A DNA stretch of 63,935 bases, filler included, from Klebsormidium nitens (Eukaryota; Plantae; Klebsormidiophyceae): NCBI GenBank assembly GCA_000708835.1. It is 7 parts of 7 records of this genome, joined end to end, with 100 filler letters (N's around TTAATTAATTAA, not from the genome) between each part and the next. Parts side by side here need not be neighbours in the genome. Positions count along the whole stretch, not along the records: positions 1 to 25,793 come from DF237131.1; positions 25,894 to 35,987 come from DF238090.1; 5 more parts are not named here. One strand, written 5' to 3'. Both the position numbers and the translations under genes were made by a program. The notes beneath the pieces are model-generated. The model did no database searches. It saw nothing but the letters and a program-made list of their open reading frames with translations, and had not been told where the DNA came from. Shown here in pieces: positions 8,234-42,820 of the stretch. Within the stretch, counting starts at the first letter, position 1; every line of letters starts with the position of its first letter.

Positions 8234-8961
8234 TTGGACGGCGATCTGATAGATTCAAGCCAATAGAACCTTTTGCTTTCTTTGATAATGTTCACGATCA
8301 GTCCAACAAAGCGCGAGTACACTTCTCCTGCTCGCAATCAAAATTGGCAGTCGTTCATCAAGAACTTTCAAAACCTACCGAAACGAAATGGCAGGCTGTT
8401 TTCCTGTGTGAGACTCTTTGCAAAGTATTGCTGCTGCGCACGAGTCAAGGTGCGCTCATATCTAAATGTTCGAAACTTGAGGAATGAGCTGACTATGTGA
8501 AGAATGAAATGTAAACTTGGATCGAGATCTAAATGATGCTTCAGATGCAAAAGTCTCACTACAGGAAAGCTATTATATAGGCCTCATGTGCATGACTTAA
8601 CATGAGTCTCAAGTCTTCACTCACTCAGTGTTCGTACATAGCATATGCTCAAGAACCGTTCGAGATCTAGTACATATTGTGACCAGCCTAGCTGGAAAAA
8701 TGCATGCAATCAATCTGCCACCGCATGGATCTCCGATCACGTCACAGTTTCTCACAGGAATATAAGCGATGATTTCTTGCTTCCTGATTGGTCGTCTGTC
8801 TATCTTGACAGCGACAGCCAATCAGATCGCACGGATCTAGAGCATGGAGTAGTTGATACAGATACCGTCCGATAAGGGCGGCGTCCTATCGGATGGTGCA
8901 CACGCTATACTGCGCGAATCCCTGGATGCAATTCAAAAAAAACGACAAAAAGTTGATCGAA

Positions 8962-12952: not shown

Positions 12953-13084
12953 AAGACAAACGTAGGCAATAAACTCATAGTACACGGACTATATGGAAGC
13001 ATGTGTTTAGTCTCTTCTTAACAACCAATAGTAATCGGATGTCCAAACATGTGTGCTTTGAAGATGCATCTTGCCAAGTCTTTT

Positions 13085-13410
13085 TTTGATGAATTTGAAT
13101 TTGAAGAAAGCTCTCACAGGGGAGAGATGCGCAGCCCCAAATTTTACAAGGCAAAAAATGATGAAATTGAAAATGAAGAAGGTCTTCCCGGGAGGGAGAC
13201 CTGTCTGCTGACGTGGCATGTTGAAAAATGATGAATTTGAATTTGAAGAATCCCTATCTAGGAGAGAGCCGGGGGGTGCTGACGTGGCATACCATTTTGA
13301 AGAATTTGAATTTGAAGAATGTAGTCGAAAGGAAAGGATAGGTTCGATGACGTCATCAAGATTGATGAAAAGTGAATTTGATGAAACATCGTCTCATGCT
13401 TCATTCAAAG
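13085..13410 (+). repeat. ~70-bp tandem array (4-5 units) at the right end of the element
   Basis: GATGAATTTGAATTTGAAGAA or a variant at 13088, 13160, 13230, 13299 and ~13365; CTGACGTGGCA in two units. Confidence 0.85.
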
Positions 13411-13835
13411 TATAAAATGAATGAATTGAATGCTGTCCTGGTCTTCACAACGATACATTCATTCTAAGAATCGGGTTAATAAAAAAGAAGGGTTAATAGG
13501 GAGTAACCGAACCCGGTTTTCAAATTGAAAAATCTAAATGAATGAAGGCTAAAATGAACCTTCAACTTGTAATCCTTCCCCCTTCATTGCCACCTTCTGC
13601 CCCATGTGCTTTGTGTGCACCTCTGCATCCATGTGTGCTGTCTCTAGCTGATTTCCAACACGCACTCATTCGCTGCGGCATTCCTTGCGCGTGGCACCGG
13701 GACATGAGGTGAATACTCCGACGTTGGGTTTGCCGGATCGTGTACATTTCCACATATGAGTGTACATCGCTCAATATTTCTAGTTGATTGGACGAGGATT
13801 CGTGTACACACACACACATCGAACACCACTAACAG

Positions 13836-14214
13836 GTGGCGAAAGCAGAAACCCTCCAACAATTCATTCAGCACTTCACGGGCTCTACTATGAGTGGCGG
13901 CATGGACCAAGAGCAAGCCTTGGAGTCACTATGCTACTGAGCTCTTTGCTCCTCTCAACGACCAACGCTTCAAGACCGGCATGGACGCTCGAAAGTCTGG
14001 TGGCATGGCGTGGAGGGCTTGGTTGGACGAAGAGTATGCACTCATTGACAAATACTTTGAATATCAATTGGAACTTGAAGAGTACAAAAGAGAATCCGAG
14101 CGTGTGAGCCGAGAGCTCGAGCAAGCACGAGTAAGATGGATTGATGTACATCTGGAACGTAGGTTCAAAAGCTCAAAGGCATTCAAGCGACACGTAGATC
14201 GGGATATCGATTAA
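13836..14214 (+). pseudogene. ORF-A, unknown function, frameshifted
   Basis: AETLQQFIQHFTG, then a frameshift, then YATELFAPLNDQRFK..GGMAWRAWL..RWIDVHLERRFKSS. Homologous to 27367-27754. Follows an AG acceptor at 13835. Confidence 0.7.
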
Positions 14215-14267
14215 AGAGTCTTGGTCATTGACTGGCAACTTTTATCAAACGTACTCTAGGCCTTGGA

Positions 14268-14810
14268 ATGGACGCGATTCTTGAATTTCGACCACAATCC
14301 TTGTTTGCTATCCAGCAGATGGACGGACAAGTTTTGGAAAGTGCTCGATCAGCCATTGTAAGATGCTATCGAGAGTTTGGTTTATTGGAGACCGTGCTGG
14401 ACGCGGCTGCCTTGGGTGGTATCCGAGCTCTGGTAGAACCGTTCAATCTTCGTCACATCACCAAATCACTGGTTAGATCGTTGGTTGCGGATGGCTTTAA
14501 TGCATTTTGGGACAAGACGGGCATAGACGGCCCATATGCAATAAAGGTTAGCTGGCGAACGGCCCTTCACAATGCTTCTCAAGCTCGGCACCGAACACGC
14601 AAGTCGCAGAAGCGGCAAGAAAGTAAATTGCACGGGACGGGGAAGACGTCTCCGACAAGTTGCAAGGATTTTGTGGCCGGAACTTCGGGATCCTCCCGTT
14701 ATGCTCCCAGCGTTGTTTGGAGTGATGCCCCAGTTATGGAACTCGAAGCTCTGGCTAACCCCGCAAAGATGCAGAAAAATGTTGGACCGCGAGATACTGC
14801 GGCAACTTGA
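14268..14810 (+). CDS. ORF-B, unknown function
   Basis: MDAIL..MD..VLES.R.AIVR.Y..PF.LRHI..SW..AL..AS.AR shared with 27796-28296. Confidence 0.8.
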   Translation: MDAILEFRPQSLFAIQQMDGQVLESARSAIVRCYREFGLLETVLDAAALGGIRALVEPFNLRHITKSLVRSLVADGFNAFWDKTGIDGPYAIKVSWRTALHNASQARHRTRKSQKRQESKLHGTGKTSPTSCKDFVAGTSGSSRYAPSVVWSDAPVMELEALANPAKMQKNVGPRDTAAT

Positions 14811-15091
14811 TACCGAAACTACCTCAAAAGTACCCGTTGACGAAAAATGGACGGCCATATTCACAGTATCTGGCTCAGTGTATTTTGCGCGCAAAATGGA
14901 GTAGCCATCTTGCTTTTCTGGCGGGTTCTACAGGCTCTCATAACCGTTTTCACCGTGAAAAGCTGCTACCCATCTTGAATTCGCGCGATCAATTTTGAAC
15001 GTGGTCCTTCATGGTATCTGGGATTGAGGACGTTCGGATGGTCAAAAAAATCTTAGCAGTATCCAGATAACGTGAAACATGCAAGGGCCTG

Positions 15092-16117
15092 TTGAAAGCA
15101 CGAGACCAAGGGGAAGGGCTACTGCGCTTGGTATTCGATGATGGCACTCGAAAGGATTTGACGATTCAACAATATATCAATCATGTCATGCGCTTGTTTC
15201 AAGGGTTCAAACGGCAACAAGACTTTATCAGCTTCGATTGGATCAAGGATGCCGATGGGATCATCAAGTATTTTCAAGAAGCGTATCCCACAAAGCTATC
15301 AATGCAGGCCACTGGAATTAACCCGCTCCTTGTGATAGCGCGCAAAGCATTCCCCGATGACAAACAGCTCTATGATGCCTATTACAAGCGGTACATGGAG
15401 GTTCGAAAGCTTATGGAAGATGCGAAACCTCCTCCTCAGCAGTTGACAGAGCGGGAAGCGGCCAATTGGAAGACCTTGGGCCAGATCAATGAACGCCGAA
15501 AGGAGCTGCAAAGGCACGTGAATCGCAAGATTCTACACAAGAAACCAAAAGATTTGACCGATGAGGACAAAATTGTGCTTTTTTGCCATCTCATACTGTG
15601 CCTTTATAGCTATCAACCAGCAATCCGAAATGACTACAGCGATTGTCCCGTTGTGCGCTTGAAGGACACCAAAACGGCCGAGGCTCGTGACATCATGTCT
15701 GGTTCCGGGAACTATCTCTTGGAGATTGCACAAGACCAATTTCGACTGGTTTTGAACAATTATAAGTCTGTCAAGCACCACGGACCCACTTCAATAGACA
15801 TGTCAACCCGATGCAACAATGTCATTGCCGAAAGCCTTCAGGTCTTTCCCCGAAAGTTTCTTTTGTCTCAGATTAAGTCGCCTGACAAGCCAATGAGTCG
15901 AAACTATCTGACCAAGTTCTGCAGCACGGGCCTTTTCAAGGACGCGAGTGTAGGTTCATGTCTCCTTCGCAAAATATGTGTAAGCAACCTCTTCAAAGAC
16001 GCTCCGAGCATTGCCGAGCGCGACGACCTTGCGCGGAGCATGTTGCACACGGCAGCTATGGCACAACGAACCTACGAGAAAAAGTTTAACCCGGATGGAA
16101 GCCGCATCCAATTTTGA
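15092..16117 (+). CDS. Tyrosine recombinase of the polinton-like virus/NCLDV type
   Basis: Catalytic set: PAIRNDY (R), YKSVKHHG (K), CLLRKI (R), MLHT (H), TYEK (Y). Start codon uncertain. Confidence 0.85.
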   Translation: MKARDQGEGLLRLVFDDGTRKDLTIQQYINHVMRLFQGFKRQQDFISFDWIKDADGIIKYFQEAYPTKLSMQATGINPLLVIARKAFPDDKQLYDAYYKRYMEVRKLMEDAKPPPQQLTEREAANWKTLGQINERRKELQRHVNRKILHKKPKDLTDEDKIVLFCHLILCLYSYQPAIRNDYSDCPVVRLKDTKTAEARDIMSGSGNYLLEIAQDQFRLVLNNYKSVKHHGPTSIDMSTRCNNVIAESLQVFPRKFLLSQIKSPDKPMSRNYLTKFCSTGLFKDASVGSCLLRKICVSNLFKDAPSIAERDDLARSMLHTAAMAQRTYEKKFNPDGSRIQF

Positions 16118-16141
16118 ACGATCCTGGACCTTCCTGTCCAT

Positions 16142-16543
16142 CTAAGATACTTTGATGCTCGTGAATGCATCCAGAGGAAGGGTGGGTGCTTTGATCTCAC
16201 TCTCCATATCAATAGAGCTAGTCATCTGGGGCACCTTAAATCCGGCATCCAACAGACGTCGTGCTGTAGATTTGTGGAGCTTTTTCGTTCGGCCATTTAT
16301 GAATCTTTGATATGCTTTTCGTAACAGAATCTCGTCATGATGTCTGTAATAGTATGCCCTCACACTTGCGTTGTGCTTTTCTGGGTGAATCTTGGCATAT
16401 TCTCTGTGTTTTTGACACGCTCGACACGGGCACGGGTTGTGCAATTGTGTTGCATCAGAGGCATCAAAGAAGCTTTCATTCATGTGGTGGACCATTGAGT
16501 CCTGATGATGTGTGAGATTATATTTGCGATGCTTCAACCGCAA
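16142..16543 (-). CDS. Small basic protein with C-x-C-x2-C motif
   Basis: CPCRACQKHREY..HPEKHN..V.AYY..ILL.KAY.RF..G.TKKLHK.T, homologous to 29796-30020. Confidence 0.75.
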   Translation of the reverse strand: MRLKHRKYNLTHHQDSMVHHMNESFFDASDATQLHNPCPCRACQKHREYAKIHPEKHNASVRAYYYRHHDEILLRKAYQRFINGRTKKLHKSTARRLLDAGFKVPQMTSSIDMESEIKAPTLPLDAFTSIKVS

Positions 16544-16605
16544 CCCAATTCAGGTGCGTTTCTCTGACGTGCTTTTATTTCCTTGTGTGACACAAGGACC
16601 TTGGC

Positions 16606-19528
16606 ATGTCTGCATCTGTGAGTGGCGCTCAACAAGCTGGCGGCTCTCGGGCCTCGGCCCCAGGATATTTCAAAGCTCTAGGCCCTCATGATGTCGATGA
16701 GCGGCTTGTGCTTGTTACCCAAGATGGCCGACTTCATGTGTCTGCAGAGAATGCTCCGATTCAGCCTCATAACAAGCAAAAATATTGGTTGGTAGATGCG
16801 ATGCGAGCTTTATACAAGCAAGGCATGTACACGGTCCCTCTACGGCTTCAGATGATCAGGGGCAAGAAGGATGCAAGCTTCAGCGGCGGCGCCTACACGC
16901 CCTTGATGGAGTCGTTGGATGGTTGGAAAGAGAATATCAATGCATACATTGCTCGGGCTTCAACAAAAGTGAATGCTTTGGCTGTACTATGCGGCATATC
17001 CGACATCTATGTCGTAGACGTAGACGCAAAGGGAGCTCCGGCCCAAGGGAATAAGCCTGCCAAAGAGGCTGGAACACAGCTCTGGGAGCGCTTGATAGAG
17101 CAGTATGGTGATGTTGAGACGTTGAAGGCTCGGACCGGATCAGGAGCGGGATTGCATGTGTATTTTAGCGCAAGTAAAATAGTTGGTCTGGTGAAGAATG
17201 CCAACTTCTCAGGTGTTGCATATGATAAGAAGACATGGGCCATCGATGGCCGTGGGCAAGACGGGATTGCTTTCATCTCTCCATCCAAGTACTACGATGA
17301 GAAAAGGACGGAGTACGGCTACCATTGGCTTGATGGTGACGAATCAGCACCTCGTGTTGGGATGCCGAGCTGGTTGGTTAGCTTTCTTAACGAGAGCGCA
17401 TTCACAGAAGAGCCACATGCTAAACTCCAATCGTCAAAGGCTTTGCCAACGCCTAGCATTGAAGCAAGCGCGCCCTCAAGCATTGTAGGGGGTCCTTCCG
17501 ACTCCGGATTGCCTGGATTGGACGCCGCGCTCAAGAGAATCAAGAAGCTCCTCCAAGCTAAAGCGCCAGGGGATCGGAGTCGATTCAGGGGAGTTGGGAA
17601 AAGAACCGCAACGGGCTGGCAAATTCTCAAGTTTAGAACGGTCGGCGTTCGTACATGTTTGAACGGTCACCAACACGACGCAAATCAGTTCAGCATCCTG
17701 AGCAACGGGTGCGTTCTCGTCTACCGCTGCTTGAGCCCTGGGTGCATTGATCGAACAAAGCCCCTGTTAGGCATACATTTTTGGCCCGAGTGTCTGCCGC
17801 TGAGGGTGGACGGGGGGCTTTTCAGAGATTACGAACGCTATGTGCTCCCTTTTGAGCCACCCAAAGAAGATGGCGACAAGACGAAGAAACAAAAGGAAGA
17901 TGACCGCACAAAAAAGACGAAATTGGACTTGCTGGATCTCGCAATGCACATCATGAACCACTACTTCGCTGTCATTCGCTCGACAAAGGCAATATACCTT
18001 GAGACAGTTTACTTGCAAAACTCAAACGGCCAGCTTCTGCCGGAGGAGATCATCGTTCGATCTATCTCGATCGATCTCGATCGATCTCGATCGCCGTGAC
18101 TTCCTCGAAGTATGCAAAAATCTCCAGCTTCAGTGTCTGCCGGGAAACTGCAAGGAGGTTGCCAGATTTTGGGAGAGCAGTTCAAAACGCCGGGAATACG
18201 ATCAGCTAGTGTTCGAGCCGGACCCGTCCAAAATGTCCTCACGGCACTTCAACCTGTTCAACGGGTTGAAGTTCCAACCAATTGAACGCAAATTGACGGA
18301 GTCAGAGTTCGTAGAGTGCGGGGAACACATGCCAAAGCTCATGTGGCACCTCCGCAACATCTTGTGCGATGGCTCAAGTGAGCGGTTTGACTACATCATC
18401 CGTTGGATGGCGCATGCCGTTCAAAAACCTTGGAAGAAGATAGGCGTTGCCCTAGTATTTCGAGGCGGGCAAGGGAGCGGAAAGTCGTCGTTGTGGAAAT
18501 TCTTTGGACGCATGATCCTCGGCGTCAAGTATTATCTTTACTGCAACCAGATTGAAACGGTGATTGGCAAATTCAATTCACTAGGAGCCAACAAACTTCT
18601 TATTGTCTTTGACGAGGCGGGCAATTGGGGTGGAGCATTTCGAATGAACGATCGAATGAAGTCGCTAATCACTGAGGACGAGACATGTTTAGAGCACAAA
18701 GGCCGCGATCCAATCACAATGCAGGACAAGAGCAACATTGTGTTCACTACAAACAACTATTGGCCTGTGAAACGGGATTCGGATGATCGCCGATATGCTT
18801 GCCAGCAGTGCTCGAATGCCAAGATGGGAGACAAGCCATACTTTGATGCACTCTTGGCAGAATTGGAGAAACCTGAGACTCCTTATCACCTCCATCGATA
18901 TTTGTCATCCATTGACATTTCCCACTGGGATCCCCAAAAAGTGCCGGTCACGGCTTGGGGAGAGGGTTTGAAGGAGCACTCAATCCCACCTCATGTCAAT
19001 ATGATGCAAGCGCTTCTTGAGAACGGCTGCTTCCATCCTTCTTTGGAGACGTGGGTTGCATCAACCGACATCAAGCGGACATTTGACACCTTCTTGCTTC
19101 AATTGGATATCAAGGAGGATCGACATACCGATGTCAACATCTTGATGCGCTCTCTCAACTCCATTTTCGATATGAGGCCACGGGCTCGCTCAATCCAGGG
19201 GGTGCGGACCCATAAGGGATGGTGGTTCCCCCCACAGGGCGCTATTTGCGAGGCCCTCCACAAAGGCAAGCTTCTGAGCACGACCGTGGAATGGGTGGAC
19301 ACCTGGCAACGGCACGAATACACTGAAGATGAAGAGGGGCCGTGGATGACCAATCCAGAAGCTTTCAAAAAGCTGATTGCCAGTGATCCAAAAGAGTTGC
19401 GGCAATCTGCTGCAGCACAAAAGTGCTCGTTCTGCTTAAACATTCATCAGTGGGAGGTGAGGAGAGACGCAAATGGGAATGTTGTGACTCGAGAAAGAAC
19501 AAGAGATGATTCTTCTGAAGGCAATTGA
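16606..19528 (+). pseudogene. Prim-Pol domain + Zn-binding domain + SF3 helicase (DUF5906-like), frameshifted by a 10-bp duplication
   Basis: LAVLCG..YVVDVD, RTGSGAGLHVYF, IDGRG; RTCLNGHQH..YRCLSPGC; WMAHAVQKPWKKIGVALVFRGGQGSGKS, LIVFDE, VFTTNN, DDRRY. Deleting one TCGATCTCGA unit at ~18071-18090 fuses the two ORFs into ~970 aa. Confidence 0.85.
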
Positions 19529-19539
19529 GTACGAATCAG

Positions 19540-20290
19540 CTTATTACTCTCTTATTACCCTTGCCGCATTATACACACACATGAAAGTGCCCATGAAAGA
19601 AGCCCCAACCGCATATGTCTATTACTCTATTACCCTATTACCCACCGGATTTGAATATACAGAATCTTCTGAGCGCCTTTATCACAACATGACAGATGAA
19701 AGTTAAGGCGATGGGTAATGAGTAATAGAGTAATACGAATGATCATGAACAACTCCGCATCACGATTGTACTCTTGTTCTAACGGNNNNNNNNNNNNNNN
19801 NNNNNNNNNNNNNNNNNNNNNNNNNNNNNNNNNNNNNNNNNNNNNNNNNNNNNNNNNNNNNNTATTACTCTATTACCCTATTACCCACTCAATTTGGATA
19901 TGTAGATCGAGTCTTCTCATTACCTATATCACCACATGACAAATAGAACTTGAGGCGATGGGTGATGAGTAACAGAGTAATACCAATAATCATTATTCTA
20001 ACAGTCATGTGTGAGTGTGTAGGATGGAAAAGAGCATCGAAGATGCAATGAAGGAAAGTCCTTGAAATGGTTCAAGAATGCTGAATGGCTTGTTACTCTT
20101 TTATTACCCTTACACAACATACACACACATGACAGTATCCATGAAAGAAGCCTTAACCACACATGATGTCTATTACTCTATTACCCTATTACCCACTCAT
20201 TTTGGATATACAGAGTCTTCTCAACACCCCCGTCACCACATGAAAGAATAGAACTTGAGGCGGTGGGTAATGAGTACTAGGGTAATGAGG
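19540..20290. repeat. Array of iteron-like units, each with an internal inverted repeat
   Basis: TATTACTCTATTACCCTATTACCCAC paired with TGGGTAATGAGTAA(T/C)AGAGTAAT or a close variant at ~19619-19740, 19862-19985 and 20170-20290; interrupted by an N gap. Confidence 0.85.
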
Positions 20291-20294
20291 CTAA

Positions 20295-23200
20295 TCAGCA
20301 GCCCCGTATCCTCTTTATCAGGTCTCTCAACGGACTGTTAGCCTCTCTCCAAAAGACCGCGTACTTTGATCGCTCGAACAATGTATCCAGGATCGTTGTG
20401 ACACGGCTCATCAACCTCTTGATGCTCGTGATCTGCTGGAGACTAGCTGCGCATCTCTTCAACCCCGAATTGATGCCCTCCGAGGCTGTCGTGATTGTCC
20501 GCTCATGTTGCGGGAAAGAGTCGATGAAGAGTGTCGGAGCACACATGTGCGTAGCGTAGCGCTTTGCCCCCAATGGCGCGCAGCTGATGGGCCCCGAATG
20601 GAAGCGGTCAACGACAAACAGGATGAACTTCGCCAATTGCGGTACCCGGTTCAACATCCACTCTTGCGCGTTGCACGAAGCGTCCTCCACGACGGTCATG
20701 CCTCGCAGCGTCTTGAAGGGAAACCGTGTCAGAAGAATCGTCCCGAGGTCCGAGACCGACTCGCCGCCCTTGAGCCAGTGGTACCCAAGGGGGGCCCGGT
20801 CTTGGCAGCACGCAATGAAGATTCCGGCTCGCCCCTTGGACGATCGTGGATTGGGGGCGCTGCAGTGTTGAGTTAGACGCTCCTCTGACCCCTTCTTCCC
20901 CCGGCCAGCCTCGTCCTCCCAGTCCACGAATCGCGGTCGTCCGTACAGCAAAGGATGGAACGCGTACGCCGAAACGGCGGCGGCCTGCTCCGCGTAGAGT
21001 GTTGACGGCGCTCGAAGAAACCCGCCATCCTCGTAGCACGGGGGCTCGCGGACCTCGAGCTTGAAAAGGACCAAGTTGGCGGCTCTCTTAAGAATTGCCC
21101 CCCTCTGTTCCGCACACTCCATCGCGGCCGCCTCTAGCTGACCCATGAGCCTCAGCCTCTCCCCTTCGATCGTCCATAGGTGTTCGGTGGCGTCATGGAG
21201 GGCCGCCAGAGGCGACCGCGAATTGTGCGAGCTGGGCCGGTTTGCGCTGGGCTCGAAGCACAGGAGGTTCATGGCGTAGATATCCTGCACGAGTGGCCGC
21301 AACGTCTTGGGGAATGCGTGTAACCCTTCTGCCGTGGGATGGAGGTGCAGAACGGCCGCCAGCATGGGGCCGTCGTTGGAGAGGTACGCCATGCCTCGCG
21401 CGTCAAGGGGCCCCTCTAGTAGCAAGTGGCGCAGCAACTTTAAGGTGACGACGCGTCCGAACACCCAGGAGTACCTCGGAATAAGCAGGGCGTGGAGAAG
21501 GGCCCCGTACGCTTGGAAATGGGTTGGGCACCAGCCGGTTGGCCCCACCGGCCCCTCCTTCAGGAACCCTTGCATCCAAGGCCGCCTCGGGACCGCCTGG
21601 CAAACGTCACACGTGGCGGGGTTGGCGCACGCTCCCGCCTCCGTCACGAAGTCGATCAGGGCAACGACGTTTGCCGGCAGCCCTTCTCGCATCATGACGA
21701 ACTCCTCCGACTTTAAAGGCGCGTTGCTCCCTTGGGCTGGAGCTTTTCGAAAGTTGCACCACCTTTGCGCGAGTGCTCGCACGGCCGGCCGCAACTCAGA
21801 AAGTCCGTTTCGGTACTTCCAAGGGCAGTCGATCCCCTCTGGCAACATGTCCGAAGGCGCTCGGTTCCCATCCTGTGAGGGCCGCACCCCGCCCACGCTC
21901 AAAGGAGTGAAGCCGCCAGCAACCCTGGGCGCCTCCGGATCCGGCTCGCATATGCTATGCAGCGACGCTTCCGTGGTCGAATCTCGCATGGCGCTCGAGT
22001 TGGCAAAGAAGGTGCCATCAAAGGTGATGACCTTGTCTCGCCCAAATGCAAATGTTGCCAACTCCGAGGTCAACCCCTCCGTTCGCTCCGCCTTCAGAGG
22101 GACGCCAGTCGCACGCGCCTCCGCCTCGGCTGCTTCAACCTCGCTCGTGTAGAGGTGCGCGCAATCGGATCGTGAACACACGTGCTGGATCTCTACGCGT
22201 GCTGCCAGGTCGTTGAAGGCCTGCATGGCGGAGTCGAACACCCGATCGTCTAGCCTCGAAACTCCGGGTCCCTCCAGGCACCTCGCGGCCATATCGCCGG
22301 CCTCAAAGTTGAGACTGTGGGCCGCCCCTAGGGCCGCCGCAAAGTGGTTGCGCAGCAGAAGGCCGTGGGAGAGAAGCGTCGTGCCGGAGAAGTTAAAGAT
22401 GCCGTCCTCCTGCAATCAAACAGCAGTCAAGAGGGTCAATCATCATTGCGTTTGAAATGGTCTTCTCCATTTAATGGCTATTGCAAATGTCGAATATTGG
22501 CATGAACTCAAATGTACAATTTGGGTCGGTGCTCAGCATCATTGCTGAAAATGGAATGCTCGATCTTGAAGACCTCTCAAACGCCGCATGTACGTGCAAG
22601 GACGCGCATGCTTACATTGGAACATCAATGCACCACTATCCACAATCAACAAAGATGCCTTTGCCAGGTCCGCATCCTTGCACAAAAGTGTATTCCATGC
22701 AAAAATGTATGTTATGTAAGCAGACCGATCTATGCTTTCGATGGCCTTTCCCTCCTCATTCTAATGCCGCGGTTTGCGATGATTGTATTGGAAGGCGATA
22801 CACTGTTCTTGGTTGTTTGACCACTATGGATGCTCGGCGCAAGTATCGGTTACGTGATCTCTCCAGCCTGCCATGGGTGTCAGATCCTAGACCGCCATAT
22901 CAAGCACGATACTATCTCAAAACGAACGTCGTTGTAAGAGCGCTCCAAGAGCATAACGGGCCACAAGGTTTAAAAAAGGTGCTTGAAGCTAGAAACAGAA
23001 GACGAATGGTCCTATCGGCTAATAGAGCTGATCGCGGGTGTACATGATTGTGGATGTTGACACTCACCTGGCCGTCGTAGACTACTGAGCAGCAAGCCGC
23101 CTCTCGCCCAGGAGTGATGCGGCAGACTCTCCGATAGGTGGTCACCTCGTAGCGCGCCCCCGCCATTGTCAGCGCCCCCCTTTTGCTCTCCACCTGCCAT

Positions 23201-24909
23201 GGGCGGCCGCACGGCGCGAGCACCTCGACGGGTCTTGGAGCACAAAAATGCTTTGCCTTGTCCCGCCGCCGCACGCCCTCCTCGCCCCACCGGTCGCAAA
23301 GGCTCGTAACACTTGCACCACCTCGGCTCATGATCGTATCGACCTTCTTGTGGCTGTGCCCCATGTCGAGCGCCGCCGCTGACAAGCACTCCCAGGGCTC
23401 AAGAGTTCCTCGGTGGGTGCAGACGACTTTCGAGTCTGGCCGACGGCAAATGGGGTCGTTGCACACCAAGAGCCTCCTTGCCCCTGCTTCCCGCTGCGCG
23501 ACCCTCTTGGCGCGTCTCTCAGCAACGATTCGCGTCGCCTTGCTCCTGCCTCCATCAATTGCGCGCTCGATCAAGGGCATGGTTTGCTTCAAAAGCACAC
23601 TCAAAAGGTGCCGGCACCGCTCAGGACCCGTGCAGTTGATACTGCTACAGTGCGCACCCTCTCCTCCAAGCACGCAAACCACGGGCTCCTCTCCAGGGTC
23701 GCTCACGACAAACACTCGGAGGTGCGGCCCTCCCTTCCACGCCTCTGCATCCAACCCAAACAGTGCACTCCCCAAGCAACCCCCTTGTTCCCAGGGCAAT
23801 ACCCAAGGCACGCCGCTCGTGACCTCTCGCGCAAACGGACGGCTGTCATCAAAGGCTGTGAAGATGGCCGCGCCTCCCTGCCACCAGCCGCTCATGAGTC
23901 GGGTCGCTTCCAGGAACCTCATGTCGTGGTCACGGCACGCCTTCTGACCACAGAGGCATCTGAAGCTGCCCATGTGGTCGACCTTGACGAGCCGTGGGAC
24001 ATTACTGAGGCTCCGTCCCGTTGCAGAGACTTCCAAAAGGCGCCCACTGGAGGCGTCAAGCTGTGGGAGGAGAAAAAGGCCGGGAGCAACAGCAATCGGA
24101 GGGATCTTGCTCCGATGGAGCTCCGAGAGGAGGGCCGCCGTGCCGAGCTCCCGTGGACTCGCCCCCTGCTCGAGCGCTCTCTTGACACCACGCCTCGAAA
24201 GGGCGGCCGCCTTGGGCTCGCGGCAGTGCAGACATGGGGCGAGGTCCCTCCTCTGGACAAAGAACTGGTAGCCGCCATCCCTTGCCTCCTCTCCTGACCG
24301 TATCTCCCAAAGCTCTTTCGTGCCATCAAAGGCTTCGTACTTGGTAAAGAGCTCTCGCTGGGGGACAGGGCCCCCGGTCGCGCTCGAAACAAAGGGGCGC
24401 CCAGCTTCGTACTCGGCTTCCACGCACCGCAAGCACAGGAGGTGCCCCCCTCCACCCCGGCAGATGAGGGCCCCGCCCCGGTTCCGTTTTCGCTCCCAGA
24501 CGAAGGGCTCGCTCCCTCGAGCGTAGACCGTCCCTTTTCCGCCGCACGTGCGCCCGATGCACGTCGAGCCGAATCCGCCGCGAGCAAAAGCTCCACCAGG
24601 CCGCAGGCTGAAGGCGAGCCCGTAGTCGAACATAAAGTCGGCGCCCCCTTGCTTGGCCGCGTAGGAGGGGCGGCCCCCTCGCACGCCTCCAGCATTTGGT
24701 AGGGGCGGAACTGCAGCCGGGACGCTCCTGATGTCGCCGAAGACTGGAGCCCGGGCCGGGCCCTTGAAGTGGACCGCCGCACAACTCCTAACGGCTTGAC
24801 CGGCCTTCAGGGTCTCGTGCAGGCTCGTCGAGGCCGATGGGGTGGTCGAGGTAATGAGCACGACGCTGGAGGGTCCTTTCTGGTCACGGGACGCCGTCAC
24901 GAGATTCAT
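20295..24909 (-). CDS. Two-exon KDZ-type transposase with SWIM-like and CxC3-like Cys motifs
   Basis: Exons 24909-23068 and 22409-20295 join as VVYDGQ|EDGIFNFSG. Catalytic GIFIACCQD..GGES, VVEDASC, VVDRFH, TTASEGINS. Confidence 0.82.
22481..23047 (+). CDS. Nested antisense gene: F-box-like N-terminus, Cys cluster, XPA-C-terminal-like helical domain
   Basis: LDLEDLSNAACTCK; CMLC..C..VCDDC; TTMDARRKYRLRDLSSLP..YYLKTNVVVRALQEHNGPQGL. Lies wholly inside intron 22410-23067. Confidence 0.6.
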   Translation: MQMSNIGMNSNVQFGSVLSIIAENGMLDLEDLSNAACTCKDAHAYIGTSMHHYPQSTKMPLPGPHPCTKVYSMQKCMLCKQTDLCFRWPFPPHSNAAVCDDCIGRRYTVLGCLTTMDARRKYRLRDLSSLPWVSDPRPPYQARYYLKTNVVVRALQEHNGPQGLKKVLEARNRRRMVLSANRADRGCT

Positions 24910-25147
24910 CCTGGGATAGGAGAGAAAGCTGTGACTTTTGAGCAGTTTTCGTTGGCCCTAAGTGCTGCGGCAACCCCGAAAATCGGGCTCATTGTGCCGT
25001 GACACAAAGTTGCACGTCATGTGGCCCAATGGCCGTTTGACGTTGGTCCACACCTTGCGAACGGTCACTTTTCAGCAGAAAGCCCAATTCCTAATAACCA
25101 TCAATTGGCAATGTGTGGTCCATCAGGACTGAAGCTGCTGCCCACCC

Positions 25148-25793
25148 CCCGCAACTTGAAGGTGTACCAGAAAAGCACCCATTATGTTCTAAAGAAGTAG
25201 TACTGCGTTTCCTGGTACAGGCTCATCGTGGACTGGATGGTTGGAAGCCGAGGCCGGCCATACCATGCAACTTGAAGGTGTACCAGAAAACACCCATTGG
25301 GTTCTAAAGAAGTCACACACTGTTTTTTGGTACACGTTCGCGACTCCCTCTGAGCTGACCCCTCAATGAAACGCTCCAACCGTTTGAGGGGCCGGCCATG
25401 CCTGTCAGGATGTATCAAAAAATGCCCATTAGTAGATTCCAATTGCGATGACAATCTGGACACTGGACTTTTGGTACACTCGATCATCCCCTGACTCGGA
25501 AAGAATTTGCATTGCATCACCAGGTGTCCCGCCGCAAAAAAGCCGCGGCGGCTTCAAACCTTCCGCAGGACCGGCCATGCCCCGCAGGATGTACCAGAAA
25601 CCGTCCATTAGATTCTTAAAAAGTAATTCACCGGTTCTTGGTACACTCTGATTGTGTGTTGGATGGCCGTACCATGCGCTTGAGGGGCGAGCCTGGCCAT
25701 GCCCCGCAAGTTGTACCAGAAATCGTCCATTAGATTCTTGCGAAGTAATACAGCGTTTCGTGGTACACTCTGATTGTGTGTTGGATTGCCGTA
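25148..25793. repeat. Degenerate array of ~115-180-bp units, each with an inverted GTACCA..TGGTAC pair
   Basis: TGTACCAGAAA..CCATT....TGGTACA recurs about 5 times. Confidence 0.8.
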
Positions 25794-25893
25794 NNNNNNN
25801 NNNNNNNNNNNNNNNNNNNNNNNNNNNNNNNNNNNNNTTAATTAATTAANNNNNNNNNNNNNNNNNNNNNNNNNNNNNNNNNNNNNNNNNNNN

Positions 25894-26430
25894 GTTGTGC
25901 CATTGTCACTTGGTATGCTTATATTTCGAGGCAGGTTTTGACTGGTTGGCCAGCGCTGTCACTTACAGGCTTTTTCAGGATAATGGGTGGAATGGCCGTC
26001 CCTTCTTGCGGGTCAAAACGTGTGGGCTATAAAAACCAATTATGCTTATACTGTGAGGCAGTTTTTGACTCCTTGGCGCTGTCAGCTATAGCGTTTCTAG
26101 AATAACGAATGGAATGGTCCTCAGCTTGCTTGCGAGTCAAAACCTGTGCCATTGTCACTTGATATCTTATATTTCGAGGCAGCTTTTGACTCCCTGGCGC
26201 TGTGAGAGCTGTAGCGTTTTAGGAAAACGAACGGAATGGACGTACCTGCTACGAGTCAAAAGTTGTGCCATTGTCAGTTGGTATGCTTATATTTCGAGGC
26301 AGGTTTTGACTGGTTGGCTAGCGCTGTCGCTTACAACGTTTTTCAGGATTATGGGTGGAATGGCCGCCCCCGCTTGCGAGTCAAAAGCTGTTCCATTGAA
26401 ACCGGTTATGCTTATAATAGAAGGTGACTT
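25894..26430. repeat. ~120-bp tandem array, each unit with an inverted TTTTGACT..AGTCAAAA pair
   Basis: GTGCCATTGTCA.TTG.TAT.CTTATATTTCGAGGCAG.TTTTGACT..GGAATGG..GAGTCAAAA about 4 times. Confidence 0.85.
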
Positions 26431-26580
26431 TTGACTTCACACCATGTGGGGTAATGGAAAGGCTGCGGCACGTGTGTCTCGAAGCTGAGACATAGGAGTT
26501 TGTCAAGGGCCGGGGGACTGTGCTTCTCGCGACATCGAAGGAGCAGCGGCAAACTTGGTACGTGATACGGGCTACGAGTC

Positions 26581-27754
26581 GTGCACGAAAGGCTTAGGAG
26601 AATAGAAAAGGTGCATCCTTTCCAACTTGCTCCAGTAATTGCCAGGTCCGACATGAGTTACGAGATGATGGAAGGCCCCAGCGCAAGGTCCGTACCGCCC
26701 CCCCTCGTGCCCGCAGAAGCCGTGCAGCATTGGGAGAGGCGAGAGGGCCGCTTCGTTTGTCTCGAGCGTCACCCGATCGAACCCGAAGCCATATGCGAAA
26801 AGACGTTTGCATCCAAGCAGGCCCTAGAGGCCCACCGTTCGAGGACGGGTTGCGAGCCTGCAAAGCTACCCAACGATCGGCGCATCTCGAGGTTCTTTCA
26901 ATTGACACCAGAGGCGGCTCGTCAAGTGAAGCATCAAGGCAATCAAACTGCGGTTTCGACATACAGAAAGACGTTCAAGGGAGAGAGAGCCACCTTTCGA
27001 GCCCGACATTTGGCAGAGTACACAGAACGGGCGTTGATTGCCGTTCCCGACCCTGAAAAGCCCAAGGTGCCCGAGTACGTGGCACCCCCGATCTCGTGGC
27101 TGCTCGCGGGCGCACAGTTGACGTCGCAGGAAGCGAGAACCATGCTCGATTCTGGCGAGCTGCACATGAACCACAGAACGTGGTCTCTACAGTACCATCC
27201 CGACAAGGTCGAGGTCAGTGATCCTCACGATTTTCGAGACCACTTAAAAAGTGAGCAACAAAAGTGTACATACAAAGGTAATCGTGTACATTCATTGACA
27301 ATCGTGTACATTGATCAATAATCATGAAAAAGGTACTAAATACTAACACGGCCTTCCTACTTTGCAGTGGAAAAGCCCAGAGACTCTGCAAGAATTCGAG
27401 CTACACTTCAAAGGGGTACAACCCGAGCTAAACGGAGCAGGCTGCATCGTATCACCTAATAGAGCCCTGTATGCGACGCACTTGTTCGGACCTCTCAATG
27501 AAGATCGATTCAAGCCGGGTCAGGTTGCACAGAAGACGGGCGGCATGCTATGGCGGGCCTGGCTGAACGTGGAGGCCGAACTGATCACTTCGTACGCTGT
27601 TTACCTGTTGAGGTTTGCAGACTACGAATCGAGGATCAAACGGATCGAGGAAGAGCTCCAGATGTCACGGGCGAGATGGATAGATGATCAGCTAGAGAGG
27701 AGGTTTAAGACGTCCATCGCGTTTCGACGGTTGATGCGCAACCAGGATCAGTAG
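26581..27754 (+). CDS. C2H2-like Zn finger + HPD-motif segment, probably spliced to ORF-A
   Basis: ICEKTFASKQALEAH; SLQYHPDK; candidate intron GTAATC at 27278 to TTGCAG at 27366; then WKSPETLQEFELHFKG..LWRAWL. Confidence 0.6.
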
Positions 27755-27795
27755 GTTGTGAAATTTTCCAGGCGAGTACCAATAAAGGAGAGTCC

Positions 27796-28296
27796 ATGGA
27801 CGCCATTCTTGGTTGGAAACCAAGAGAGAATATTGCAATTGTCGAGATGGACCAGCGTGTCCTTGAAAGTGTGCGGTGTGCAATCGTAAGGGCTTATACG
27901 GAGATGGGTATCTCACATACGGTGCTCGACATTGGGACTCTCGCTCCAGCAAGGGCGCTCTGCAGACCTTTTTCGTTAAGGCACATCTGCAGAACGACTG
28001 TCCGCTCTCTACAACGAGAGGGCTTTGAGGCGGACTGGTATAAAAACGGTTTCCTTGGTTCCCCTTATATGCTTCATATAAGCTGGAAGATGGCTTTGAA
28101 ACATGCAAGCCGTGCGCGAAAGGCCGCTCGAAGATCGCATACCCGACATAGAAGGAGAGACGACTTCGTTTCGTCGCATTGCACAGCATCCGAATCCGCT
28201 TCCGAGTCACCTGCCGACTCTTCTCATATCTGGGACGATCAAAGCGCCTATGGCTTGGATCTAGAGTGTCTCGCCAATCCATCAAAGGCTCGCTGA
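27796..28296 (+). CDS. ORF-B homolog, unknown function
   Basis: Aligns with 14268-14810. Confidence 0.8.
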   Translation: MDAILGWKPRENIAIVEMDQRVLESVRCAIVRAYTEMGISHTVLDIGTLAPARALCRPFSLRHICRTTVRSLQREGFEADWYKNGFLGSPYMLHISWKMALKHASRARKAARRSHTRHRRRDDFVSSHCTASESASESPADSSHIWDDQSAYGLDLECLANPSKAR

Positions 28297-28506
28297 GTCC
28301 AGATGGATACTATGAATAGCCCAAAGAGGACCCGTTTGCGAATTTCGACCAGCCATATTCACAGTATCTGATGATATTCACTTATCCCGGGAAAATCCAG
28401 ATTTTTATCTCCCGAATACCAGAGCTACGACCTCCTCTTTACCAGATAATATGCAAAGCTTGGATAGGATATCACTTTTGCAGGGAATTCTCGGACTGAG
28501 ATATTC

Positions 28507-29631
28507 ATGTATCCAGACCTTCGAGATGCGTCCGTTGGTCGAAATTTTCTCAGAGTATCTGAGATACCACGAATGGCAATCTTTAAGGCAAACGTAAGGA
28601 CCGTAACCTTACCAGAGACAGAAGAGCTCTTACAGAGGATCTTCGATGATGGTACTCGAAAGCCAGTTACAATCAAGCAGTACATCTCTCATGTCATCAG
28701 GCTGTACAGAGGCTTGTTTGGCTCTGAAGCAGAGATTAGTGGTTTTGACTGGCTTAATGATGCAGACAGAGTGATTATGTACTTTACCAAAACGTACTCG
28801 GACAAGTTGAGTATGCAAGCGACTGGATTGAACCCTTTACTGGTTATTGTAAAGAAGGAGTTCCCCAAGGATCAAGAGCTCTACCAAACGTACTACAAAC
28901 AATATCAAACCGTTCGTGATCTCATGGAAAAGGCCAAGCCCCCTCCTCAGATGCTGTCGGAGTCGGAGTATCGAAACTGGAAGACCCTAGATCAAATCAA
29001 CGAACTTCGAATCGAACTCCAAAGGAAGGTCAATCGAAATATCTTGCCAAAGTCGCCTGATCAGCTCAGTGTCGGCGACAAGGTGATCCTAATGCGCTAC
29101 TTGGTGCTTTCATTATATACAAATAGCCCAAGCCTCCGAAATGATTTCTCAAATCTGCCAATCATCCGTTTTGAGGATATAGATGGGCCATCAGCAAAAA
29201 TACTGATGGCCGGAACTGGCAACTACCTCCTTGAGTATGCTAGAGACCAGTATAGAGTGGTGTTGAAAGACTACAAAACGGTGAAAACCCACGGTGTTCA
29301 GAATCTCGATTTGCCGCAGCGCACCTGCAACGTCATTTCTGACACTTTGCGTGCTTATCCAAGGCGGTACCTCTTGAGCCGAATGCGCAACGGGAATGAA
29401 CCGATGAGCCGTAATTACCTGACGGTCTTTTGTAGCAAGATCTTCCCGGACGCTCATGTGGGCACATGTCTACTTCGAAAGATCTGTGTTTCAAATCAGA
29501 TGAAAGACGCCCCGAGCATTGCTGAACGGCAGGCTTTGGCAAAACAGATGCTGCATAGCCCTGCGATGCAAATGAACACATATGAGAAACACTATCTACC
29601 TGATGGATCAAAAATAAACTTCGGTGCTTAA
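28507..29631 (+). CDS. Tyrosine recombinase
   Basis: PSLRNDF, YKTVKTHG, CLLRKI, MLHS, NTYEK; clearly homologous to 15092-16117. Confidence 0.88.
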   Translation: MYPDLRDASVGRNFLRVSEIPRMAIFKANVRTVTLPETEELLQRIFDDGTRKPVTIKQYISHVIRLYRGLFGSEAEISGFDWLNDADRVIMYFTKTYSDKLSMQATGLNPLLVIVKKEFPKDQELYQTYYKQYQTVRDLMEKAKPPPQMLSESEYRNWKTLDQINELRIELQRKVNRNILPKSPDQLSVGDKVILMRYLVLSLYTNSPSLRNDFSNLPIIRFEDIDGPSAKILMAGTGNYLLEYARDQYRVVLKDYKTVKTHGVQNLDLPQRTCNVISDTLRAYPRRYLLSRMRNGNEPMSRNYLTVFCSKIFPDAHVGTCLLRKICVSNQMKDAPSIAERQALAKQMLHSPAMQMNTYEKHYLPDGSKINFGA

Positions 29632-29795
29632 GTCACAATGTACACGAAATGTTGTCATGATTGAGGTTTGAGCGATTCAGATGGCACAAGGCATTAGCAA
29701 AGTTCGGTCGCAAGCATGTTCGGCAGTTTCCCGTGGATGAGCGAACCCACATTGGACAGCTTGTAGGCCGTTTTAGCTGGGGTGTCAATTGAAAA

Positions 29796-30020
29796 TCATG
29801 CGTTTTGCAATCTTATAATGGTCCGTTTGTGGAGTTTCTTCGTTTGGCCCGCGAGGAAGCGCCCATATGCCTTCTGGAGTAGAATCTTCTCCTGATTCCG
29901 ATTGTAGTACGCTTTCACGTCCTTATTGTGCTTCTCGGGGTGCATTCGTTGATACCGTCTGTGATTTTCGCAAGCCCGACAGAGGCATCTGTGGATGTTG
30001 GCGGGTTCCTGATGGGGCAT
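29796..30020 (-). CDS. Small C-x-C-x2-C protein, truncated by a TGA where copy 1 has Gly
   Basis: CLCRACENH..HPEKHN..; NA*F here versus DAGF in copy 1. Confidence 0.7.
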   Translation of the reverse strand: MPHQEPANIHRCLCRACENHRRYQRMHPEKHNKDVKAYYNRNQEKILLQKAYGRFLAGQTKKLHKRTIIRLQNA

Positions 30021-30126
30021 GTTCTGTCGTGTACTCTAGCTACAAAAAAAACGACCCGTTCGATACACGTGGCCGTGCCGCGTTTGAAACGTCTGAATAT
30101 TTTCTTGAGGACTGACTATAGAAATC

Positions 30127-32061
30127 TTGATGGCTTCATCAGCAACCGAGCACAACGCTTTGGCCTGTGACGCCGTTGGCTCTAGGGCGTTGGCCCTTCA
30201 GAAGACCAAGGCTCTAGGGCCCCAAGGCATCAAGGCTGAGATCTTGCGCCTAGGCACGCTTGGCTTTTTTGGAATCCCGGTACGCATCTGGTTGAAACGA
30301 AACGGCAAGAAAGGCACTAAGTTTCCCAGCAAGTGGGATCACATTGTCACTTCACAGATCTGGAAAGAGAACATCAAAGACATACTTGAAGAGTTTGATA
30401 ACCCTAATGGTATTGCCATCCTGACGGGTCCAAGTCAGATGTATGTGATTGATGTCGATGTGGGTGGAGAAGGGACAAAACGGTGTGGTTTGAGCCTTTG
30501 GAAGAAGCTTATGACCCAACATACGGAGCCTAATACACTCAAAGCAATCACTGGAAATGGGGGTTTCCATCTCTACTTTCGAATGGATCAAAGCACTGGT
30601 TTAAAGCAATTGAACAACTTCGGAACCCTGAAAGTCGATGGCAAGACTTACCGAGTCGATGGAAGAGGGACCGGGGGTGTCATATTTGCCCCACCGTCAT
30701 CCTATGAAGGCCCAAATGGCAAGGTTCTTCAATACAGATGGAGTTCAGAGCCAACTTCGAAAGACGATTGTGTAGAAGAAATCCCAAAATGGCTCGCGGA
30801 CTGTGTGAATCTCGGACGTGCTTCTGCTGTACCGAATGTACAGTCTTTGCCACAGACAAGCTCAGAAGTCGACCACACAGACACTTTACAAGACTCTGAG
30901 GCGATCTCCGGAGATGAGTTGCCCATTCGAACCGTGGTTTCAAACGTGGATTCAAAAGCATACCGTGAAGTGCAAGACCTGCTACGAAAGAACGCTAACG
31001 ATTGCACAGCCGTATACGGTGGCTCAACTGTGCTCCCAAATGGCAATCGCTCTTTTCAGTTCCGTGTAAATGGCCCAAGAACGTGCTACCTTGGACGACA
31101 GCATAACGGCTCTAATAATTTCACTGCAATCCAGGGGTGCGCGGGTGACTTTCAAGAGGTATTCTATCGGTGTTTTGGCACGGCTTGCCAGGAAGACAAT
31201 ACAAAATTACTGGGACGAGTGAGCATTTCCGCCGCTCTAGAGCAAGTGGGGGTGGAAGCTTTCGGAATTCGAGACCGTACTGTGAGTTGCGAAAGCAATC
31301 TGAGAGCGCGGTTACAGCGGCCATTCATGGAAGCCACGATCTGCAGGAGCGATTGGGGAGCTGCATCGATCTTTGCCAAGCTTTTCGAGCATGACAGACG
31401 GGTCATATATGATGCCGGAAGGTTCTGGATATGGAACGGGACCACATGGGTATCATGCAACTCAGAAGCGGCGGAGCTCAAGAGCGCTTTCATGTACCAC
31501 ATGGGCAGAGTGAAGACGTTTTGGCTCAGATTCCTCGCAGAGATACAAAACAAACAGCTTGCTAAGGCAAAATGCACGAAGGAAGCCGACCTAGAGCAGC
31601 TTCGCGGTGCTCATAAGTCAATCGAATCTCCTTCACTGAAAGAGGACGTTCGCAAAGCAAAGGTCGCTGAGAGGGCTATCTTAAAATCATTCGAAGCATT
31701 CAAGAAAAAGACCACTCAGTCGGCCAACTGGCAAGGGCCGGATGTCGAGTCGGTGCCAATTGCAGGTCGATGCCTGGTTCCGCTGAAGGATCTGATCAAA
31801 GTCGAGAACTTTGCTAAAGAGCTCGATACTGCAAGGGATTACTTGAATACATCATCTGGCGCAATACATCTACCGACAGGCAATCTCATACCCCATCATC
31901 CAAGCAATATGCTGTCAAAGGAGTGTTCGACGGAGTACGAGGGGCATGCATATCCGTCCCCACTAGTAGACGATTTCATGCAACAGATACAACCGCCGGA
32001 GACGATGCCCGTTCTGCAGATGACTCTCGGCTATGGCATAACGGGGCATTCTAGAGAAAAA
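30127..32061 (+). CDS. Prim-Pol + Zn domain + D5_N-type SF3 helicase (cut by gap)
   Basis: IAILTG..YVIDVD, ITGNGGFHLYF, VDGRG; RTCYLGRQH..YRCFGTAC; YLNTSSGAIHLPTG..PHHP, LQMTLGYGITGH. Confidence 0.85.
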
Positions 32062-32081
32062 NNNNNNNNNNNNNNNNNNNN

Positions 32082-35976: not shown

Positions 35977-36087
35977 CAGCGCTCTGANNNNNNNNNNNNN
36001 NNNNNNNNNNNNNNNNNNNNNNNNNNNNNNNTTAATTAATTAANNNNNNNNNNNNNNNNNNNNNNNNNNNNNNNNNNNNNNNNNNNN

Positions 36088-42274: not shown

Positions 42275-42323
42275 GGTCGCCTGCTCTTCCGGGGTCCGCG
42301 TTGTTGCCTAAATGGACGACCCT

Positions 42324-42764: not shown

Positions 42765-42820
42765 GTAGGGAAATTCTTTCTATCCCCATCTTAGAGGAGG
42801 CTAGGGACCACGGGCAGCTC

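Follow-up and report, generated by a model that had tools for sequence, protein, structure and literature searches.

Eukaryotic elements that depend on a tyrosine recombinase are, to our knowledge, either recombinase-only transposons or complete viruses with capsids. Cryptons are eukaryotic tyrosine-recombinase DNA transposons that lack terminal inverted repeats (TIRs) and presumably pass through a circular intermediate, and we know of none that encodes a primase–helicase. P4 and the phage-inducible chromosomal islands (PICIs) combine an integrase, small regulators, a Prim-Pol/superfamily 3 (SF3) helicase and an origin of direct and inverted repeats, without a capsid. Among polinton-like viruses (PLVs), an OLV11-like tyrosine recombinase accompanies a primase–SF3 helicase in PgVV/Gezel-14T and in the TsV group (Yutin et al. 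2015, PMC4642659; Bellas et al. 2023, PMC10120064), and PgVV is described as having circular donors and a recombination hotspot beside its recombinase gene (PMC4642659). The ‘end module’ of PLVs (recombinase, primase–helicase and repeats) has been proposed to be mobile, with swapping of helicase domains, and two PLVs are described that share the primase but have unrelated helicases (Barth et al. 2024, PMC11296320). In Amoebidium, recombinase-rich giant repeats are flanked by a Plavaka transposase (PMC11244446). Here we analyse a 63,935-nucleotide stretch of the Klebsormidium nitens assembly GCA_000708835.1 (the window), in which five genes, including a tyrosine recombinase and a primase–helicase, occur in the same order twice. 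We assign a probability of about 0.5 to these being members of a multi-copy, capsid-less element of ~6 kb, a PLV-type integration–replication end module that likely excises, copies itself and re-inserts.

The window consists of at least seven pieces of repeat-rich eukaryotic DNA, joined through six identical 100-bp N-linkers. One module (copy 1) lies on the piece spanning positions 1–25793 and the other (copy 2) on the piece spanning 25894–35987; because the linker at 25794–25893 separates them, their proximity in the genome is not established. A preliminary description of this DNA had reported two syntenic copies of a module conserved over a long time, and both points are confirmed. Open reading frame (ORF) A, ORF-B, the recombinase gene, the antisense ORF-C and the Prim-Pol gene have identical order and orientation in the two modules (Table 1), with codon-level protein identities of 54% (A, 87 codons), 50% (B, 155 codons), 57% (recombinase, 333 codons), 60% (C, 63 codons) and 34% (Prim-Pol, 300 codons). 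Identity is 0.30–0.40 at third positions versus 0.57–0.76 at second positions and silent sites are saturated, showing that the five genes are real, old and under purifying selection. At the DNA level, the likeness of the copies amounts to a single short stretch (69%), and their non-coding flanks are unrelated. Copy 1 is a damaged member, and copy 2 looks intact up to an assembly gap.

Neither Pfam nor PHROG names a family for the recombinase, and its identification therefore rests on fold and motifs. A model of the copy 2 protein, built from a 26-sequence alignment (mean predicted local distance difference test score (pLDDT) of 78.8), gave four matches in the PDB at E ≤ 0.001, all of which were Cre (best E 3e-4), with Xer and integrases next; template-modelling scores (TM-scores) were low, near 0.3. 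Among the top hits in a viral library, at E 1e-8 to 7e-4, are proteins from viruses of Heterosigma, Pyramimonas, Tetraselmis and Aureococcus anophagefferens and from Qinghai Lake virophage. The catalytic R, K, R, H and Y are retained in 23, 25, 22, 22 and 22 of the 26 aligned sequences, the last three positions being otherwise mostly gaps. With a predicted Cre/Xer-like fold and active-site residues kept bar the first histidine, the protein belongs, as first proposed, to the tyrosine recombinase superfamily, and its modelled structure is nearest to giant-virus, virophage and PLV-like enzymes. Only one of its 28 homologues is a named close relative, a hypothetical protein of K. nitens. Searches of plasmids and phages (tblastn with recombinase queries) gave no match, and an exact-pattern scan of GTDB found no relative.

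Six AT-rich viral contigs in IMG/VR encode relatives of the recombinase at 25–30% identity; we read these contigs as PLV-like, the capsid labels on them being putative. ATPase-like ORFs on these contigs (two scanned) gave AAA or A32-like matches below the cut-off, and the capsid candidate of one contig, L004, had no match in the PDB. On the PLV-like contigs L003 and L004, the recombinase is accompanied by two DNA methyltransferase-like ORFs, an A32-like ATPase, a WW-domain protein and a DUF5906 helicase, and L004 has been binned within a giant-virus metagenome-assembled genome. P0027, P0028, P0041 and P0042, all encoded on short contigs, form a separate recombinase clade (25–28% identity) that also has leucine in place of the motif histidine.

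The Prim-Pol/SF3 helicase previously assigned to both copies stands in its primase half: PF09250 is above the Pfam cut-off in each, and DxD, H and D motifs and a Cys/His domain are common to both. The helicase halves are not alike, copy 1 having a DUF5906/VapE-like domain (DUF5906 over the cut-off) and copy 2 a D5_N domain, and BLASTP between them, compared short of the AAA core, found no similarity (best E 4.8). Unlike helicases on a shared primase suggest that the helicase domain was swapped. The copy 1 helicase is 28% identical to the DUF5906 helicase of L004 (E 1e-22). A change of reading frame at a 10-bp tandem repeat splits the gene in copy 1. In copy 2, the gene is cut off by a 20-N gap (32062–32081) immediately ahead of Walker A; contigs of sets X1 and X3 continue past 32057–32060 with different sequence, their loose end leading, as judged by eye, into a Walker A motif, and the stop is therefore an assembly break.

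None of the three small genes could be assigned to a family. For ORF-A, of which the 5′ part in copy 1 lies in a different frame, there was no Pfam match and a protein-atlas search yielded no family; for ORF-C, no family matched in Pfam or PHROG, and its sequence suggests that it is likely a DNA-binding regulator. ORF-B, modelled and searched by fold as the copy 2 orthologue, is predicted to form an alpha/beta domain of ~100 residues that has a long helix and a disordered tail (mean pLDDT of 70.6). Its best viral fold matches are uncharacterised giant-virus and phage proteins, and against the whole PDB (best Z 8.2) a tail of R3H, SirA and winged-helix domains gave no clear family. A protein-atlas lead to the giant-virus family DUF5759 was weak (0.81–0.84, below 0.9); DUF5759 was not found in Pfam scans of 8 and 14 ORF-B homologues, and neither DUF5759 nor ORF-B searches gave a match in the one viral record covered, of four. 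A SOCS-box match of ORF-B was below the cut-off and was disregarded.

As in the preliminary description, neither a jelly-roll capsid nor a packaging ATPase came to light, in the five genes or in the rest of the window. Neither appeared when 24 and 21 ORFs of the window were scanned with Pfam; capsid-like and ATPase profiles from the viral contigs (L003–L008) had no match among 950 six-frame segments of the window, a search in which the recombinase control reached E 1e-24; and an A32-like ATPase profile (five, from L003 and L005–L008) gave nothing credible in the window (best E 0.78). ORF-B, which had been put forward for structure prediction as a possible hidden capsid, is by its model a small alpha/beta domain and not a jelly-roll. 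A double jelly-roll needs a longer protein than A or C (79–135 amino acids). No TIRs were found at the candidate ends of copy 1, where the longest common word is 10–11 bp of a CA repeat; copy 2 lacks its right end. Of the features by which PLVs are recognized, the integrase and the primase–helicase are thus present, and a double jelly-roll major capsid protein (MCP) within the module, an A32-like ATPase and TIRs were not found. Transpovirons have an SF1B helicase and TIRs and no integrase; here, the helicases are SF3-type and a recombinase is present.

Non-coding sites are conserved as well. Repeats of GTGTACAT with a 20-bp period precede ORF-A in both copies, and the homology of copy 1 to copy 2 begins at ~13736. 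The spacers between ORF-B and the recombinase gene have a longest common word of 19 bp (≤12 bp in 200 shuffles), despite saturated silent sites, and three GTATCY motifs (0.12 expected per 300 bp) keep their spacing in both copies. Contigs end within or near this 19-bp block, at 14869 (X6) and 14905 (X1/X2); X1 and X2 are contig sets of one sample, possibly the source itself, and so are not independent, and X6 comes from another study. Given the contig breaks of X1/X2 and the fit of an X6 contig from 13660 (Table 1), the left end of copy 1 is likely at ~13640; the X6 contig matches 13660–14869 and has 931 further letters unmatched among the matches listed. On the other side, ATTAC[CT]C repeats in direct and inverted orientation form an array that starts 11 bp past the helicase stop of copy 1 and is a candidate replication origin or right end. 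One of its units folds into a hairpin at z −5.0 and a second at only z −1.7; the conserved site and the remaining arrays folded no better than shuffled sequence (six of the seven stretches). Two contigs per run reach the array from helicase-like sequence (loose ends at 19525; likeness judged by eye). Three more arrays of palindromic units lie beside mobile genes, at 13080–13330 (~70 bp), 25150–25793 and 25894–26436 (~122 bp each), and are unrelated in sequence.

Table 1. Coordinates of the two modules and associated features in the window
Feature	Position	Strand	Remarks
Probable left border zone, copy 1 (putative)	13630..13660		Contig breaks at 13629/13632 (X1/X2); X6 contig fits from 13660
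GTGTACA[TC] repeats upstream of ORF-A, copy 1; candidate binding sites	13740..13809	+	At 13740, 13760 and 13802; 20 bp from first to second
ORF-A, copy 1, main frame; small protein	13894..14214	+	54% identical to copy 2
ORF-B, copy 1; small alpha/beta protein	14268..14810	+	Homology to copy 2
19-bp identical non-coding block, copy 1; candidate recombination site or operator	14854..14872		GTATCY at 14866, 15014 and 15059
Tyrosine recombinase, copy 1 (stop-to-stop frame)	15071..16117	+	R 15626, K 15764, R 15968, H 16046, Y 16073
ORF-C, copy 1; CxCxxC motif and basic helix	16142..16495	-	60% identical to copy 2 over 63 codons
Prim-Pol with Cys/His middle domain, first frame, copy 1	16606..18099	+	PF09250 E 1e-9
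SF3 helicase, DUF5906 type, second frame, copy 1	17957..19528	+	PF19263 E 6e-20; Walker A, B and motif C
10-bp tandem repeat at frame break, copy 1 primase–helicase	18057..18093	+	
Array of ~245–300-bp units, direct and inverted ATTAC[CT]C repeats	19539..20290		Holds a 77-N gap
KDZ-like transposase following copy 1; may belong to the unit	20295..22415	-	49–62% identical to copy 2 counterpart
Assembly linker between the copies	25794..25893		44 N + 12-bp all-frame stop + 44 N
ORF-Z, C2H2-like zinc-finger ORF upstream of copy 2 only	26653..27321	+	Weak zf-C2H2 matches below cut-off
Three GTGTACAT repeats upstream of ORF-A, copy 2	27264..27311	+	20-bp period
ORF-A, copy 2 (stop-to-stop frame)	27347..27754	+	4 homologues at ~80% identity
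ORF-B, copy 2	27796..28296	+	6 homologues in one search; model H-E-H-E-E-H
19-bp conserved block, copy 2	28352..28370		GTATCY at 28364, 28509 and 28555
Tyrosine recombinase, copy 2 (stop-to-stop frame; likely start 28573)	28552..29631	+	R 29137, K 29275, R 29476, H 29554, Y 29581
ORF-C, copy 2	29796..30035	-	Homology to copy 1
Prim-Pol fused to D5-type helicase, copy 2	30130..32061	+	PF09250 E 1e-16, PF08706 E 2e-12
KDZ-like transposase after copy 2, in pieces, cut by next linker	34213..35987	-	PF18758 KDZ E 0.003, below cut-off

The module belongs to a wider family. In a tree of 34 recombinase sequences of at least 230 amino acids (3 of the 28 homologues and 3 of the 6 viral loci omitted; OLV11 not included), 27 form one clade (99/99) that is distant from the viral sequences and has three subclades. 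Copies 1 and 2 sit in different subclades, each with its own close relatives, which refutes a simple duplication; the preliminary description had held that one segmental duplication with shared flanks would undo its case, and the separate subclades and saturated silent sites dispose of it. The close relatives of copy 2 are fewer than those of copy 1 among the contigs listed. ORF-B has 13 representatives among 1.84 billion proteins, by name none outside this family, and ORF-B and recombinase homologues appear to share a contig in seven further cases, as indicated by equal longest-contig sizes (41375, 38027, 17226, 16283, 6906, 5217 and 4872, three being only 4.9–6.9 kb); an ORF-A homologue is likewise on the 41375 contig. 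Across nine pairs (these seven and the two copies in the window), ORF-B and recombinase divergence correlate (Spearman 0.41; 374 of 20000 permutations) and the nearest neighbour agrees in six. ORF-B diverges faster, with 69% identity where the recombinase has 93%, and for this reason we dropped a reading in which most copies lack A and B, taken from a fall in contig depth over these genes. Two loci returned by a metagenome scan with a short weak match, one of them plainly bacterial, were also dropped. In contig set X5, C>T and G>A changes exceed the reverse by ~3:1, as expected for decaying chromosomal copies, and there was no CpG depletion worth noting. Set X7 supplied only three matching pieces. 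ORF-Z, upstream of copy 2, has no counterpart that we could find near copy 1. A literature search, the reach of which excluded most subscription journals and Repbase/Dfam entries, found no description of this family.

How a capsid-less PLV-type end module could move and multiply we infer from the biochemistry of tyrosine recombinases and of SF3 helicases and Prim-Pols and from PLV precedent, starting from the observed gene set and order, selection, domains, conserved sites and repeat array and the predicted recombinase fold. The recombinase would bind at or near the conserved block upstream of its own gene and release a circle; the SF3 helicase would open the array of direct and inverted repeats as an origin, where the Prim-Pol would prime; host polymerases, or the Prim-Pol itself, would copy the circle; and the recombinase would re-insert the copies. 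A, B and C may be small DNA-binding proteins that regulate excision, replication or insertion. The unit could have originated as the integration–replication end module of a polinton-like or giant virus, its helicase domain having been swapped at least once. A more far-reaching version, which we offer tentatively and consider on balance doubtful, is that of a PLV end module which stands alone and can still move: a nuclear element of a streptophyte alga that primes its own replication, integrates through its recombinase and corresponds, among eukaryotes, to integrative plasmids or phage satellites. Such an element would swap helicases, maintain a subfamily that is episomal or was amplified recently, and possibly ride on KDZ transposons or target them.

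Several observations weigh against an element of this kind. The HxxR histidine of the recombinase is leucine in 23 of the 26 aligned sequences, making its catalytic activity uncertain. The 19-bp block is internal, between ORF-B and the recombinase gene, and not terminal; no pair of attachment (att) sites, target duplication or terminal repeat was found at copy 1, and no circle, empty site or end-to-end joint was found among the contig matches listed. In favour of such an element, one X1/X2 contig on the primase region of copy 1 has a depth of ~160, versus 16–20 for exact-match contigs, which hints at copies that are young and nearly identical, either repeated or episomal; contig depth is, however, not equal to copy number. 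A shared contig size is an indirect sign of linkage. The reach of the capsid test was limited: its capsid-like queries come from distant contigs and bear labels that we assigned, and A and C were judged by length. Finally, a KDZ-like gene of the same family and orientation follows both copies, diverged as much as the module genes. Of the earlier interpretation, what stands is a multi-member family that is real and old, its tyrosine recombinase being of the PLV/giant-virus type and accompanied by a primase–helicase. The ~6 kb given there is a putative size of the whole unit, with att sites and terminal repeats not found and the KDZ-like transposase following both copies; self-replication and the role of a virus satellite, also proposed there, are likewise putative.

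We judge it improbable that chance placed a KDZ-like gene after both copies; the pairing points to a composite or to a preference for certain targets. The strongest rival, if an unlikely one, is that the five genes travel as cargo in, or make up one half of, a larger KDZ-mobilised composite similar to the Plavaka-flanked giant repeats of Amoebidium (PMC11244446) or to Teratorn, in which the recombinase and primase–helicase would resolve or amplify the whole instead of inserting it. Past copy 1 the minus-strand gene is 0.8 kb away, and past copy 2 the scaffold distance to it is ~2 kb, with 49–62% identity between the two genes; summed contig depth is raised from ~14500 to 25793; and a second CxC-type gene, a DUF3987 gene and an archaeo-eukaryotic primase (AEP)-like gene lie to the left of copy 1. 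However, the link in copy 2 spans two 20-N gaps, which lie between the helicase and its KDZ-like gene, and a 94%-identical tandem duplicate, which together resemble scaffolding artefacts, and at the point where the window jumps, related contigs carry on with the D5 helicase. The helicase–KDZ spacers are unrelated between the copies, and there are no shared termini between 13000–13900 and 24950–25793. Among the contig matches listed, two that match the KDZ 3′ part have ~3 kb on the helicase side unmatched, and KDZ positions are covered by 9–22 shallow contigs, the module by 1–6 deeper ones. The KDZ-like gene at 20295–22415 has no Pfam match of its own, and no Plavaka family match was found for the KDZ-like transposase.

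The surroundings of the KDZ-like genes and the left flank of copy 1 hold further genes. The 94%-identical tandem pair (32082–33210 and 33231–34345) lies between the 20-N gaps, each unit consisting of an unknown minus-strand ORF and a KDZ 3′ end, and probably arose when scaffolding stacked two paralogues. The KDZ-like gene of copy 1 is preceded by a cysteine-rich ORF of 186 amino acids (22487–23047, plus strand) and an ORF of 665 amino acids (22912–24957, minus strand) with what we take to be SWIM-like motifs; neither has a family match, and they are possibly a KDZ 5′ exon and a passenger gene. A second, unrelated transposase-like gene in pieces, presumably of CxC/KDZ type by its motifs, occupies 431–4000 (plus strand) without a Pfam match and is followed by a 173-bp tandem repeat (4372–4721). 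A divergent, probably intron-containing DUF3987 gene (5636–8254, minus strand; E 6.5e-5) and an AEP PrimPol-like gene (10329–11654, plus strand; E 0.005 to human PrimPol) form a second primase/helicase-type pair left of copy 1, with a depth ~2× that of the exact contigs of copy 1.

Somewhat less likely than a composite is a truncated endogenous polinton-like or giant virus, whose capsid and ATPase genes would be present in complete copies elsewhere or lost to insertions or assembly breaks. Every identifiable gene has viral kin, the ends of neither copy are defined and a gap cuts copy 2; moreover, the idea is made plausible by reports of several giant-virus inserts with MCP and ATPase in Klebsormidium assemblies (PMC5294986) and of PgVV-group MCPs from Streptophyta (PMC10120064). 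Against it, two anciently diverged copies retain the same five genes with no detectable capsid on a 25.8-kb or a 10-kb piece, there are no TIRs, and seven of eight IMG/VR scans—with ORF-B, the recombinase alone, the helicase, the 19-bp site, Prim-Pol, ORF-C and an outgroup recombinase—found no close relative (exact-pattern searches of low sensitivity; ORF-A not queried). A single old insertion spread by segmental duplication, or a domesticated gene cluster, could account for purifying selection on all genes and for the closeness of the copies within the window, but is already largely refuted and highly improbable given saturated silent sites, unrelated non-coding flanks, closer relatives of each copy elsewhere, a closeness that spans a linker and the broken frame of copy 1.

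Elsewhere in the window, the region 42044–48730 is intronless and contains a thioredoxin-like CxxS ORF (42324–42779, minus strand) as well as two coiled-coil ORFs of great length and marked purine skew; searches gave no assignment, and we take it to resemble a giant-virus insert. Decayed pieces of copia-type retroelements (DUF4219, gag-like) and a PIF1/helitron-like helicase fragment are found at 36100–41000, 50298–50870 and 58600–61300.

If our preferred reading of a capsid-less end module is correct, a recombinase with its own primase–helicase and no capsid would be an intermediate between transposons and viruses, and would give a tangible example of the mobile end module that was postulated on the basis of viral mosaicism (PMC11296320). 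Capsid-first surveys, such as that of PMC10120064, would miss such elements. The alga is related to land plants and can be cultured; as it has family members that look intact and a 19-bp candidate site, direct tests of excision, replication and dependence on a helper are feasible, and the recombinase could serve as a new site-specific tool in green algae and plants.

Compared with PLVs as described, the module is similar in having a giant-virus/virophage-type recombinase beside a primase–helicase, integration in an algal genome and a candidate recombination site by the recombinase gene as in PgVV; it differs in that no MCP, minor capsid protein, ATPase or TIRs were detected, in its size (~6 kb versus 15–30 kb) and in its three small genes, which were not found in the PLV-like contigs examined. 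With the PLV end module it shares the adjacency of the two enzymes, a repeat array by the helicase gene, and a primase that is ~30% shared while the helicase domain differs; in the available account that module is seen only inside viruses, whereas here it is repeated in cellular chromosomes with no virion genes in sight. Similar to the Amoebidium giant repeats, it is an intron-poor mobile cluster with a tyrosine recombinase beside a KDZ-related transposase, but the KDZ match (PF18758) is weak and Plavaka nil, it is a single unit and not a tandem cluster of up to 50 kb, and the available account of Amoebidium mentions no primase–helicase. Cryptons are likewise recombinase-driven, without TIRs and with a presumed circular intermediate, and are set apart by description from an element with a primase–helicase. 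Although the module differs from P4 and PICI-type integrative plasmids and satellites in its eukaryotic host, in having no known helper and in the absence of a detected recombinase relative in plasmid, phage and GTDB searches, it is like them in logic.

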